Positions 6,094-57,629 of a stretch of 64,000 nucleotides of DNA are shown here, piece after piece (the first letter of the stretch is position 1; each line of letters starts with the position of its first letter). The DNA comes from Alphaproteobacteria bacterium GWF2_58_20 (GTDB lineage Bacteria; Pseudomonadota; Alphaproteobacteria; UBA1247): assembly GCA_001768735.1 (NCBI GenBank), contig MEMB01000002.1:699031-763030 (forward strand). Direction: 5' to 3'. Below the pieces are notes generated by a model. The model had not been told where the DNA came from. It was given only the letters and a program-made list of their open reading frames with translations, and did no database searches. A program made the position numbers and the translations under genes.

Positions 6094-6169
6094 TGGCGTC
6101 CCCTAGGGGATTCGAACCCCTGTTGGCGCCGTGAGAGGGCGCTGTCCTAGGCCTCTAGACGAAGGGGAC
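6094..6169 (-). tRNA. tRNA-Glu (anticodon CUC)
   Basis: The reverse complement is GTCCCCTTCGTCTAGAGGCCTAGGACAGCGCCCTCTCACGGCGCCAACAGGGGTTCGAATCCCCTAGGGGACGCCA. It folds as a cloverleaf with a 7-bp acceptor stem, a TTCGAAT T-loop and anticodon loop CTCTCAC. Confidence 0.85.
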
Positions 6170-8310: not shown

Positions 8311-9170
8311 AGTTTCTCACCATCCCTAAACAGAAAACCCAAGACCTGCTCCGGTGCATCGGCCACGAAATCCGCCACCACCTGTGAACCCACACGTGCA
8401 TTTTCCCGCATTTGACGGAAATAGGGATGAATGTCGGCCATCACCTCAAGATGCTCCAGGCTGTCACGCCCCCAAGCCGCAAAAATCCCGGTCATCCCCA
8501 TCTTCATGGCCATGGCCACATCGCGCACAGGATGATCCCCCACCATGACCGCCTGCCCCGGCTCCACCCCAAACTCGGCACAAATGAAGGAAAAAACCTC
8601 CGGGTGCGATTTCGGACCAAAACCGTCACTGTTCAGCACCATGCGACAGGCGGGTTTTCCTTCGCCTCCCAGTTTCACATATTCCACCGGGCATGCGGGA
8701 TCATGAACATCTTCTCCCGCCGGACAAGCGCACAGGATGTCAAAAAAAGACGCAATTCCGATCATGTGCATCCTCTCCAGAACCCGCGTCATGGGGCTTT
8801 CCGAATAGCAGGCAAGCCGGATGCCGCGCTGAACCATATCCTCCAGCACCTCCAGCATCCCGTCATAGGGCTTGGCAAGACGGGCAATATTGCTGTCAAA
8901 TGCCGCTATGGCCGATGCAAATTTTTCCGTAAGGTTCTCGCCAGGATAGGCCTTCCGCAGCACCGGATTGAGCGGCACCGTTTTGGGATAATGGAAAATG
9001 TCACAGTTCTCTTCCAAAACCTGACGCATGCCGGAAAGAATTTCATCTGCCGCAATGCCGCTTTGCTCGGACAGGTCTGCCACAAGAAGCCGGACAGCCT
9101 GATCGTTGGTGCCGAAATTCTCCCAAAGGGTATTGTCAAAATCGAAAATGGCAAGACGGATGTCACGCAT
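8307..9170 (-). CDS. HAD-superfamily hydrolase, tandem paralog 2
   Basis: MRDIRLAIFDFDNTLWENFG and GDHPVRDVAMAMKMG. Overlaps paralog 1 by 4 nt. Confidence 0.7.
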   Translation of the reverse strand: MRDIRLAIFDFDNTLWENFGTNDQAVRLLVADLSEQSGIAADEILSGMRQVLEENCDIFHYPKTVPLNPVLRKAYPGENLTEKFASAIAAFDSNIARLAKPYDGMLEVLEDMVQRGIRLACYSESPMTRVLERMHMIGIASFFDILCACPAGEDVHDPACPVEYVKLGGEGKPACRMVLNSDGFGPKSHPEVFSFICAEFGVEPGQAVMVGDHPVRDVAMAMKMGMTGIFAAWGRDSLEHLEVMADIHPYFRQMRENARVGSQVVADFVADAPEQVLGFLFRDGEKL

Positions 9171-10262: not shown

Positions 10263-10336
10263 GGCGCGGTGGCGGAGTGGTGACGCAGAGGTCTGCAAAA
10301 CCTCGTACACCGGTTCAATTCCGGTCCGCGCCTCCA
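10263..10336 (+). tRNA. tRNA-Cys (anticodon GCA)
   Basis: GGCGCGG...CCGCGCC acceptor stem plus CCA. Anticodon loop CTGCAAA. T-arm GGTTCAATTCC. Confidence 0.85.
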
Positions 10337-10408: not shown

Positions 10409-10483
10409 TCCCCGGTAGCTCAGTGGTAGAGCAAGCGGCTGTTAACCGCTTGGTCGCTGGTTCGAATCCGGCCCGGGGAGCCA
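10409..10483 (+). tRNA. tRNA-Asn (anticodon GUU)
   Basis: TCCCCGG...CCGGGGA acceptor stem plus GCCA. Anticodon loop CTGTTAA. T-arm GGTTCGAATCC. Confidence 0.9.
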
Positions 10484-20641: not shown

Positions 20642-20840
20642 GTAAACTCCCTATGGCTAATTCGTTGACCCGGCCCTTCATGGACCAGGACCCTAAAGCC
20701 GCCGACACACTGCCGACGGCAAGGAGCTGCGGCGAAAACAATTTCCCGCCGCAAGGGTCGCCACTATACACAAATCCCGCCAGACGGCAAGCCCTTCTGC
20801 GCCCCCTTTTGCCAGAAAACCGGAAACTTCTTTCATTTCG

Positions 20841-20870
20841 TTGACTTGCATGCCCTTTATGACCTAAAAT
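20841..20870 (+). promoter_or_regulatory. candidate sigma70 promoter
   Basis: TTGACT (20841..20846), an 18-nt spacer, then TAAAAT (20865..20870). It is 32 nt upstream of the ATG at 20902 and followed by a GGGAGG RBS. Confidence 0.4.
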
Positions 20871-20901
20871 ACATCCCTAAATCCTTGGGAGGACACGCGG
20901 C

Positions 20902-21993
20902 ATGGACATCACCCTCATCGACCTGCTTTTGGCACGCACGCCAACCTGCAGCAAATCCGGCTACATGTACTGGGCTTTCCGCATCATGATCATATGGACC
21001 TTTGCTGCCATCGGGGACATCTTCGGCCTCGGTGTGGACATGGCCTATGGCATGCATGGTTTCCTTGTCGCCACCACAACCCTTTTCCTCCTTTACCCCA
21101 TCAGCCGCCTTGGCGCTGCCCGCTGTCGCGCCCGGGGCCAGAACGAGAACCGCCACTGGCGCATTCTTGGCCCGGCCATCGCCATTGTCGTTTTCACCCT
21201 CATGTCCACCGACGCCTTTGCCGGCAGTCCCATCCCGAAACTGGGGTTCATTTTCACCGCCCTTGTCATGATCGTGCAATTTTTCCTTGTTGGCGTCCCC
21301 GGAAGCAAACAGGAAACCTCATCCCCCAGCAACCTTTTGCTTGGCGAAACCCCTCCCCCCCTGCCCAAAAACACCTTTTCGCGGGGTGAATTCCCCGGGG
21401 GCCAAGCCGCCCTCCCGGAAAACCCGGACAATTTCCTTACCTCACGCAGCCCGCCTGCCCCGGAAACACTGGCTGACATCGACGCTCCCAGCCCTCCCAT
21501 GACCGACACCCCAACCTACGAAGCCCCCTACATTCCCGAGCCCTCCCCCCTGCCAGAAGAAACCCTGCCGCAGGGTGAAGAAACCAACGCAGCCCCCTTT
21601 TCTTCCATGGAAGAAACGCCTGCGCCTGAATCCATGCCGGGCATGACATCCCCACTCCAGGAACCCGCCACCGAAATCCCGAGCACCCATCCATCCGACA
21701 TCCCGGCAGAACCTTTTGCCAGCTCGCCGACAGCCCCCATTCCCATGCCCGCGCCAGATGCCCCCCCCGCAGCCATGGAGGCGGAAATCCCTCCGGCACC
21801 CTTGCCGCAAGAAGACTTTACCCCGGAAGAAAAGGCCATCGGACAGGCGGAAGAAACAGAAAAAACCACCAACGAAGAAAACCCCCTTCTCTCTCCTCAA
21901 GGAGAAGATGCCGACACTATTCCCCCGGCAACCAGCCCTGACCAACAGGATGCGGAAGAAGAGCCCCTTCCACCCCAGTCTCCGCTGGTTTGA
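20902..21993 (+). CDS. membrane protein (DUF805-like N-terminal domain, 4 TM) with a roughly 220-aa acidic Pro/Glu-rich disordered C-terminal tail
   Basis: SGYMYWAFRIMIIW and ISRLGAARCRARGQNENRHWRIL weakly resemble the DUF805 motifs. The tail is dominated by P, E, T and A. Confidence 0.5.
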   Translation: MDITLIDLLLARTPTCSKSGYMYWAFRIMIIWTFAAIGDIFGLGVDMAYGMHGFLVATTTLFLLYPISRLGAARCRARGQNENRHWRILGPAIAIVVFTLMSTDAFAGSPIPKLGFIFTALVMIVQFFLVGVPGSKQETSSPSNLLLGETPPPLPKNTFSRGEFPGGQAALPENPDNFLTSRSPPAPETLADIDAPSPPMTDTPTYEAPYIPEPSPLPEETLPQGEETNAAPFSSMEETPAPESMPGMTSPLQEPATEIPSTHPSDIPAEPFASSPTAPIPMPAPDAPPAAMEAEIPPAPLPQEDFTPEEKAIGQAEETEKTTNEENPLLSPQGEDADTIPPATSPDQQDAEEEPLPPQSPLV

Positions 21994-23093
21994 AGGCATA
22001 CCTTGCCATGACCATCACCACGACACATCATCTCATAAGGGATCTCGTGGCACAGGCACCCTTCCTTCAGCCGCTCGACCTTTTCGCCCATATTGCGGAA
22101 TATGATTTTTCTGACGATACCCATCTTTACAATTTCGCCAATGACGCCCCCACCCGCCGCATGGTGGCGCGCGTCCTCGGCACCCTGGCCCGCGAAGGCC
22201 GGATTGCCGAAGGCGATGTCATCCCCATCATGTCCAAGCTGCTTTCCGTGCGCGGATTTTATGGAACCTATTGCCAGATGATGGTTTATGCCTGGATGCA
22301 GGAAAACAATATTGATTTCAACGCCGAGGTCTGGATTCCCGGCGCAGGCCTCATCAATGAAAACGATGTGGCTCTTGATGGCCGCTTCAATGCCACCGAT
22401 GCCCTTTTTGAAGTCAAGGCCATGGGCATCCAGAACAAGCTCAAGTCCGACTTCATCGAAAAGCTCAAGCCCCACTTTCCCGGCCACGTCATCCTGGTGG
22501 ACGGGCGCGATGATTCTGCCTTTTCCGACATTGCGGACAAGGCCCTTTCCAAAACCCGGGAAATCGCCAAGGCCCTGCAGCACCAGAACCATGTGGAAAT
22601 TGAGGGGCTGGGCTGGATTGTGCGCAAGGAACCCCACGGCAAGACCCTTTACACCAGCACCACGGAGTTTGACCCCTACCTCTTTGCCGAACAGAACCAG
22701 CTGTTTGCCTATCGCCACTGCTCGCAATTTGTTCTGGGCCATCCCTTTATTCTGGTGTGCGTATATTCCGGCGATTTTGGCAGCTCTGTCCTCACCACAA
22801 ATTTCGAGGGCATGCGCGATGTGGCCCTGCGCGCCCTTGCCCGCCGCAGTTTCATTGCTTTTTCCGGCAACCCTGAAAAGGCCCACCACTATGATCCAAA
22901 GGCAGGCCCCGGACACACGCTGGGAGATGCCTGCGCCGCCCTTTCCGGCATTCTCTTCCTCAAGGCCAAGAGTTTCGACGCCAACCTCTACCTCAATCCC
23001 AACGCCCGCCATCCCGTGACGCCCGATGGTCTGGGCCGGATTTTTCACGCAACCCGCATGCGGATTGACGACTTTTCCCACGACAATTACTGA
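21990..23093 (+). CDS. hypothetical protein with a candidate PD-(D/E)xK nuclease-like core
   Basis: 367 aa, translationally coupled to the preceding gene by an ATGA overlap. VALDGRFNATDALFEVKAMG fits hhhD-(x11)-ExK. Confidence 0.45.
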   Translation: MKAYLAMTITTTHHLIRDLVAQAPFLQPLDLFAHIAEYDFSDDTHLYNFANDAPTRRMVARVLGTLAREGRIAEGDVIPIMSKLLSVRGFYGTYCQMMVYAWMQENNIDFNAEVWIPGAGLINENDVALDGRFNATDALFEVKAMGIQNKLKSDFIEKLKPHFPGHVILVDGRDDSAFSDIADKALSKTREIAKALQHQNHVEIEGLGWIVRKEPHGKTLYTSTTEFDPYLFAEQNQLFAYRHCSQFVLGHPFILVCVYSGDFGSSVLTTNFEGMRDVALRALARRSFIAFSGNPEKAHHYDPKAGPGHTLGDACAALSGILFLKAKSFDANLYLNPNARHPVTPDGLGRIFHATRMRIDDFSHDNY

Positions 23094-23116
23094 CCCCTTT
23101 CCCATGCGGAAAACGT

Positions 23117-23150
23117 ATGGCCGGCATGAAAAAATTGCCGGTTGTTTTTG
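23117..23150 (+). terminator. rho-independent terminator
   Basis: GGCCGGCA-tgaaaaaat-TGCCGG stem followed by TTGTTTTTG. Confidence 0.45.
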
Positions 23151-57343: not shown

Positions 57344-57629
57344 GACATATCCTTTCAGGTTCCGCGCCCGTCATCATTGCTGATTGCCTGTGGTTGCCGT
57401 CTTCAAACATGGGCCGGAAAAGGATTGTTTTCCAAGTGTCATGCGTCTGGCAGGTTTAGCTCCCCTTGCGGGGCGGCAACGCCTCGGATCTGCCGACCGT
57501 TGCCGAAGCATTTACGCCGCAATGACGCGCAAGGCAAGCGTTTTCAGCGAAAAAAATCGTTGCGGCTTTTGCCCTTTCCCGGCAAAACCGGAGAAGAAAA
57601 GCGGCAGGATACCGCAACTGCAAGCAAGC

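Follow-up and report, generated by a model that had tools for sequence, protein, structure and literature searches.

Several described systems are relevant to the locus analyzed here. In the PD-(D/E)xK nuclease superfamily, enzymes such as those of the Hjc/NucS type carry an E...D...ExK active site. XisH, the FdxN element excision controlling factor (PDB 2OKF), is a protein of ~130 aa that acts with XisI in cyanobacterial element excision. The C-terminal tip of the giant secreted CdiA protein of Burkholderia pseudomallei 1026b (CdiA-CT), after which the cognate CdiI immunity gene follows, is a PD-(D/E)XK, Mg-dependent tRNase with the active-site residues E187, D214, D223, and K242 (PDB 4G6V; PMC9086364). 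Here, we analyzed two adjacent genes, gene 1 and gene 2, in a 64,000-nucleotide stretch of contig MEMB01000002.1 from Alphaproteobacteria bacterium GWF2_58_20 (the window, to which coordinates refer unless another locus is named). A preliminary description had read them as an orphan, translationally coupled operon that encodes a DUF805-like membrane protein and a protein with a PD-(D/E)xK-like core, and had likened the pair to small defense or abortive-infection modules. As described below, structure prediction gave good support to the nuclease fold of gene 2, and the pairing of the two genes appears to be a local feature of one narrow clade.

A word-indexed search with gene 2 recovered three orthologues only, at 100, 81, and 69% identity, and an AlphaFold2 model based on three sequences had a predicted local distance difference test score (pLDDT) of 35. 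This model was superseded by one computed with a 65-sequence family alignment (mean column identity of ~26%), which reached a pLDDT of 96.6 and a predicted template modeling score (pTM) of 0.93. In this model, the PD-(D/E)xK (restriction-endonuclease) fold was found, so that this fold is a well-supported prediction for gene 2. Residues 1-80 form a helical N-terminal region, residues 84-167 form the nuclease core, and residues ~195-361 make up a conserved C-terminal half with the motifs A227xxN230, Q240-F, R275xLARRxF282, S313, N330-P-x-A333, and DDFxxDNY361. The segment VALDGRFNATDALFEVKAMG, corresponding to residues 121-140, had been proposed as the hhhD...ExK strand-turn-strand of the nuclease, and the model agrees with this proposal: the predicted strand β2 (residues 121-127) carries D124, and β3 (residues 133-138) carries E135-x-K137. 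Across the 65 sequences, D124, G125, F134, K137, F282, and N330 were invariant, and G86, Y94, A227, Q240, S313, and A333 were nearly so. Position 135 was acidic in all 65 (D in 58 and E in 7). Sequence and profile searches of PDB found no relatives of gene 2, and Foldseek against PDB and BFVD returned no significant match.

An acidic residue upstream of the D/E/K cluster, which the preliminary description had suggested looking for, was found for the family as a whole on helix α1 (E90), but gene 2 itself has Gln at this position and a co-varying Glu, E107, on strand β1. In the alignment, 47 sequences have E90/Q107 and nine have Q90/E107. All nine Q90 sequences lay on two neighboring deep branches of a neighbor-joining tree, suggesting that the swap may have been a single event. 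The change from E90 to Q90 accompanied by E107 looks like the migration of a catalytic carboxylate.

Next, the size and spread of the gene 2 family were considered. When 1.84 billion representatives were searched exhaustively with a profile, 284 clusters were detected at E ≤ 1e-3, and 153 of these also passed E ≤ 1e-10; thus, the family comprises at least 284 clusters at 50% identity. Most of the matches were single-domain proteins of about 350-380 aa that aligned end to end. When 185,579 GTDB species genomes were scanned by a pattern-limited method, only 25 loci were obtained, and a genome scan with the three-sequence alignment gave no match. Family members were found in Hyphomicrobiales, Halomonadaceae, Terriglobia, Clostridia, Planctomycetota, Bacteroidota, and Campylobacterales, and the GTDB loci also came from Bradyrhizobium, Methylocella, Vreelandella, Cytophaga, and Paludibacter. 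The family therefore appears, from the databases searched, rare, widespread, and taxonomically scattered. All named members, for example those of Oceanirhabdus seepicola, Vreelandella titanicae BH1, Bradyrhizobium diazoefficiens, and Afipia, are labeled "hypothetical protein". Neither protein of the locus had been recognized as a named family, and this was borne out, in that neither gene received a family assignment from Pfam, NCBIfam, or PADLOC. Gene 2 had no Pfam or NCBIfam match, and the 65 members had no family match in common; when they were compared with PADLOC, four single matches only were obtained (E of 0.003-0.006). A tblastn search of plasmid and phage collections with gene 2 gave no match. 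Taken together, gene 2 represents a family that is new within a well-known superfamily and is set apart by distinct N- and C-terminal additions and by an E/Q variant.

Members of at least 90% identity occur in both Afipia and Bradyrhizobium. In three loci from Bradyrhizobium diazoefficiens and from Hyphomicrobiales and Pseudomonadota metagenome-assembled genomes (MAGs; L032, L015, and L014), a UvrD/PcrA-like helicase is encoded directly 5' of the gene 2 homologue. The DNA that these loci share is 95-97% identical and ends exactly at the stop codon of the homologue (locus position 9062), a boundary at which a mobile segment may end. In a Beijerinckiaceae MAG (L026, 6014-7082), the family gene was split into two adjoining open reading frames (ORFs), each matching the family; the split probably reflects either a pseudogene with a frameshift or a misassembly. 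Elsewhere, a giant (>2,156 aa) BspA-type leucine-rich-repeat protein is encoded directly 5' of a distant family member (L006, 3-6473).

We then analyzed the arrangement of genes 1 and 2, whose features are listed in the table. The promoter proposed for gene 1, TTGACT-18-TAAAAT, was confirmed as a sequence feature: it has 10 of 12 consensus matches and was the top-scoring site of the 2.9-kb region, in which the promoter scan found 4 sites compared to 1.1 expected from shuffles. In the nearest relative with upstream DNA (L001; NCBI GCA_964549205.1), the -35 element is identical, the -10 element reads TAGAAT at 16-nt spacing, and the GGGAGGA sequence is kept. The terminator that had been noticed 3' of gene 2 was also present, as two hairpins followed by UUGUUUUU, with a folding energy of -25.9 kcal/mol (z = -2.57) and with the structure kept in L001. 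A first terminator scan had overlooked this hairpin pair because of its loop of 9 nt.

However, the junction of the two genes differed from the preliminary description, in which an ATGA overlap coupled their translation. The junction reads GGTTTGAAGG, and the TGA stop of gene 1 is overlapped only by an unconserved TTG at 21990; hence, the overlap is absent, and the genes are merely closely spaced, 14 nt apart. This TTG was dropped as the start of gene 2, because all three orthologues start with M-[AT]-[IF]-T-T-T-H, in alignment with the ATG at 22008. Gene 2 therefore encodes 361 aa instead of the 367 aa reported earlier. The spacers between the gene 1 stop and the gene 2 ATG measure 14 nt here, 15 nt in L001, and 28 nt in L002, with unrelated, non-coding sequences. 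The ratio of nonsynonymous to synonymous substitution rates (dN/dS) in comparison with L001 was 0.14 for gene 2, 0.35 for the membrane domain of gene 1, and 0.27 for that portion of its tail that could be aligned. Both ORFs are real genes by this measure. An antisense ORF of 402 aa (21897-23105) and other shadow ORFs were rejected, since homologues and selection favor the plus-strand frame; the antisense ORF is a GC-rich shadow. From their signals, genes 1 and 2 are predicted to be an operon, co-transcribed with a shared promoter and terminator.

Table. Coordinates of the features of the two-gene locus and its downstream neighbor in the window.
Feature	Position	Strand	Remarks
Sigma70-type promoter	20841..20870	+	-35 TTGACT 20841-20846, 18-nt spacer, -10 TAAAAT 20865-20870
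Ribosome-binding site of gene 1, GGGAGGA	20887..20893	+	8 nt 5' of ATG; kept in L001
Gene 1, 363 aa	20902..21993	+	membrane domain and acidic tail
Candidate ribosome-binding site of gene 2, GAAGG	21992-21996	+	sequence reading
Intergenic spacer, 14 nt	21994..22007	+	gene 1 stop to gene 2 ATG
Gene 2, 361 aa	22008..23093	+	unnamed family with predicted PD-(D/E)xK fold
Gene 2 nuclease core, residues 84-167	22257..22508	+	
Q90 codon, helix α1	22275..22277	+	Glu in 56/65 family members
E107 codon, strand β1	22326..22328	+	mostly Gln elsewhere; Glu in 9/9 Q90 sequences
Predicted catalytic motif	22377..22418	+	D124 22377-22379, E135 22410-22412, K137 22416-22418
Intrinsic terminator	23102..23149	+	hairpins 23102-23120 and 23121-23141 (CCGGCA-9-UGCCGG), then UUGUUUUU at 23142-23149
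Ankyrin-repeat protein, 889 aa	23206-25875	+	3' of terminator; N-terminal repeats, C-terminal 490 aa without assignment

The intergenic DNA between rpsF, which lies on the minus strand, and gene 1 is itself well kept: positions 20760-20850 are ~90% identical to L001, compared to near 0.6-0.9 substitutions per synonymous site in the flanking genes. Within it, a minus-strand promoter-like site, TTGCCG-16-TATAGT (20790..20763), is probably the promoter of the rpsF-rpsR-rplI operon, divergent from the -35 element of gene 1.

Gene 1 starts with a membrane domain (residues 1-134), for which the preliminary description had proposed four transmembrane (TM) segments. Four hydrophobic peaks were indeed observed, around residues 36, 60, 96, and 123, and no hydrophobic peak follows residue 135; however, the second peak is weaker, so that 3-4 TM segments are predicted. 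The long disordered tail of about 220 aa, rich in P, E, T, and A, was recovered by composition as residues ~146-363, that is, 218 aa with 51 P, 30 E, 24 A, 20 T, and a net charge of -36. According to the positive-inside rule, the loop at residues 69-87, which contains six Arg, would be cytoplasmic, and because the last two TM segments follow it, the tail is predicted to be cytoplasmic as well. The membrane domain is 69% identical to that of the L001 orthologue without gaps; in the tail, identity falls to 56% and the alignment contains 104 gap columns (proteins of 363 and 293 aa). Islands of the tail that are kept in L001 are FSRGEFP, ADIDAPxPPMTxxPTYExPYxPEP, and a C-terminal EEE-x-PP-x-x-PL[VA], the last of which was also seen in the gene 1 fragment of L002. 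The only other Pro/Glu-rich stretch in the window (36% P+E over 100 aa) belongs to an 895-aa ORF at 45243-47930 (+).

The assignment of gene 1 to DUF805 (PF05656) was rejected. The isolated membrane domain had no Pfam match even at E ≤ 10, nor did the whole protein at E ≤ 1; a profile-profile comparison (hhalign) with E. coli YhaH and YhaI gave a probability of 0.5%, and the RRLHD loop is absent. DUF805 proteins resemble gene 1 in being small multi-TM inner-membrane domains of similar size, and forced alignment showed a loose likeness in the N-terminal MD..L..L...K..YW.F and, near the last TM segment, in IP.(I/L)G...G.PG. In place of the RRLHD loop, however, gene 1 has RCRARG (aligned RLGAARCRARG) without the His-Asp pair, and its additional hydrophobic segment and 218-aa acidic tail are both absent from YhaH and YhaI. 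Gene 1 also remained without a Pfam, PADLOC, or PHROG-type assignment, and a weak match to NCBIfam PRK11371 (E of 0.093) was not reproduced by the orthologue. No relatives past the close orthologue were found in the metagenome scan, and no paralogue was found in the 64-kb window. A word-indexed protein search with the membrane domain (20902-21351) gave no match either, which is a weak negative, as the identical 363-aa protein of L005 was also missed. Gene 1 is thus a lineage-specific orphan inner-membrane protein.

Gene neighborhoods were then employed to analyze whether the two genes belong together, as conservation of the pair in other genomes had been expected for a module. The close relatives have gene 1, gene 2, and the ankyrin gene in the order seen here, and no loci other than L001 and L002-L004 (81 and 69% identity) had genes 1 and 2 as neighbors. 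The distant homologues comprised 25 loci of GTDB species genomes, 64 loci of metagenomes, and several others. Crude gene calling and all-against-all BLAST of the ±3 neighbors at 88 loci from 38 lineages revealed no neighbor family common to more than two lineages. Hydropathy and composition of the neighbors were examined at 22 GTDB genome loci plus L006 and L008; in this set, no Pro/Glu-rich tail like that of gene 1 was found at -1 or +1, and hydrophobic segments occurred in only four same-strand neighbors (1, 5, 1, and 2 per protein), which were mutually unrelated. The distant homologues in this set therefore had no gene 1-like membrane neighbor. Members of the Q/E subclade were likewise solitary. 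The idea of a conserved module thus fails because the pair is limited to 2-3 close relatives and is absent from 38 other lineages; from these neighborhoods, the pairing appears to be a local arrangement in one narrow clade.

Elsewhere, the neighbors of family genes include Mrr, KwaB, two C5 methylases (2 of 71 scanned neighbors in other lineages), AAA_15/AAA_21, TniQ, an integrase, RteC, and UvrD-like helicases, and AbiEi/AbiEii are encoded directly 5' of the family gene in L010. Many other neighbors are housekeeping genes.

We favor, with moderate confidence, the explanation that the gene 2 product is active as a metal-dependent PD-(D/E)xK phosphodiesterase with, most probably, an accessory, conflict-type role, that it belongs to an unnamed, sparse, stand-alone family, and that the co-transcription of its gene with gene 1 is specific to this clade. 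The product would be a cytoplasmic enzyme of a ~360-aa family, with D124, E135, and K137 on the β2-β3 hairpin as its putative active site and with the fourth carboxylate moved in this clade from α1 (Q90) to β1 (E107). The R275-x-L-A-R-R helix and the conserved C-terminal half would probably bind a nucleic-acid substrate. The family would represent an accessory nuclease that spread horizontally and most likely acts in genome conflict, for example by cleaving DNA or RNA in the manner of a restriction enzyme or a toxin. Gene 1 would have joined the nuclease gene in the ancestor of the small clade, where one sigma70 promoter would drive both genes as a single transcript.

Several observations weigh against this explanation. 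Core genes surround the locus, rpsF-rpsR-DUF2232-rplI-dnaB-alr at one end and, at the other, genes for sugar epimerases as well as alaS and recA; base composition at the locus is ordinary, and there are no nearby mobile-element genes. A conflict gene would not typically be found in such surroundings. The defense and mobile-element neighbors of the family elsewhere are sporadic and, as raw occurrences, give only a hint of a conflict role. Moreover, Q90 in place of the usual helix Glu possibly lowers or changes the activity. Finally, the pairing is kept across three species (69-81% identity) together with the conserved C-terminal motif of gene 1, and a functional link of the two genes within the clade is possible.

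Such a link is central to an explanation that we consider improbable, namely, that the genes constitute a membrane-anchored nuclease module in this clade (for defense, abortive infection, or a toxin-antitoxin-like function), in which the nuclease would stay tethered to or inhibited by the gene 1 tail or its PPxxPL motif, for instance by mimicry of a nucleic acid, and a trigger would release it. The two genes point in the same direction with 14-28 nt between them and have a common promoter and terminator; they are paired in all three relatives with upstream DNA, the charge of the tail (-36) and its predicted cytoplasmic location would suit such a function, and EEE-x-PP-x-x-PL[VA] persists through large indels. 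However, a single narrow clade has the pair, for which synteny alone could account, and the 38 other lineages without a partner argue that the nuclease family needs no anchor or inhibitor. In addition, neither protein matched PADLOC, relatives of gene 1 were not found elsewhere (in the metagenome scan and in the weaker word-indexed search), and the core-gene location speaks against a module. A combined version is likewise unlikely: the gene 2 family would be an unrecognized single-gene conflict nuclease (directed against phages or mobile elements, or a toxin) that spread horizontally and was domesticated and membrane-tethered here, docked or masked by the acidic tail of gene 1 as a mimic inhibitor.

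The same core-gene setting, near dnaB and recA and with normal composition, would suit a housekeeping-type repair or recombination nuclease, such as a structure-specific endonuclease working with a helicase. Vertical inheritance under strong purifying selection (dN/dS of 0.14), the UvrD/PcrA-like helicase directly 5' in Bradyrhizobiaceae loci, and the E...D...ExK spacing, which we take to be similar to that of Hjc-type Holliday-junction resolvases, also argue in its favor. Nevertheless, we give this explanation a low probability: the distribution is very sparse (25 loci in 185,579 genomes by the pattern-limited scan, and 284 clusters in 1.84 billion), no genomic partner or context is conserved, closely similar members occur in both Afipia and Bradyrhizobium, and the end of the shared DNA exactly at the stop codon of the gene in those loci suggests mobility. 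We regard it as very unlikely that gene 2 encodes a toxin directed at RNA, with tRNase activity like that of the CdiA-CT of strain 1026b, and that gene 1 or the ankyrin protein provides its immunity factor. The structure 4G6V belongs to an enzyme that cuts tRNA-Ala (PMC9086364); however, gene 2 encodes a stand-alone protein of 361 aa without a delivery domain, CdiA/CdiB, Rhs, or type VI secretion system genes are absent nearby, and no downstream gene is kept across lineages, unlike what is expected of an immunity gene.

As a result of this analysis, a family of at least 284 clusters, whose named members are all annotated as hypothetical, can now be assigned to the predicted PD-(D/E)xK fold, and its named predicted catalytic residues and natural E/Q swap are open to mutagenesis. 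A further PD-(D/E)xK family will not surprise specialists; its value lies mainly in annotation and in a modest lead for defense-system screens. Since the combination of a membrane anchor and a nuclease appears to be a local arrangement, caution is advised against its propagation as a candidate defense system.

Some further observations concern the surroundings. The ankyrin-repeat gene listed in the table lies downstream of gene 2 in all close relatives, and a second, small ankyrin-repeat gene lies between dnaB and alr (L005, 4302-4760); two such genes within 10 kb suggest a host-associated lifestyle. GC skew was negative in every 2-kb bin of the window (1-64000), and the plus strand, which carries genes 1 and 2, therefore appears to be the lagging-type strand of one replication arm. 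The window also contains an Rfam COG3860 RNA motif at 57448-57499 (-), with 58.8 bits and above the gathering threshold, and three tRNAs (6097-6169, 10263-10333, and 10409-10480).

The locus was also compared with known systems. In contrast to type II restriction-modification systems, no cognate methyltransferase adjoins gene 2 in the window, and with respect to known anti-phage systems, neither gene 1 nor gene 2 matched PADLOC-DB 2.0. XisH is 10% identical to gene 2, but the locus has no XisI-like partner and no excision element. CdiA-CT is the best structural match to gene 2, with a sequence identity of 9%; nevertheless, gene 2 encodes a free-standing, predicted cytoplasmic protein that is almost three times the size of CdiA-CT and has neither a delivery system nor a downstream gene that is conserved. 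Accordingly, the architecture of contact-dependent growth inhibition (CDI) or polymorphic toxins was not found at this locus, where the neighbors of gene 2 are the membrane orphan and, past the terminator, the ankyrin protein. Within the PD-(D/E)xK superfamily at large, none of the curated Pfam or NCBIfam superfamily models matches gene 2, although it has the Asp on β2 and the (D/E)-x-K on β3. It differs from the superfamily by an extra helical N-terminus of 80 aa and a C-terminal half of ~165 aa (with RxLARRxF, NPxA, and DDFxxDNY), and in its clade, helix α1 has Gln instead of Glu and strand β1 carries a Glu.

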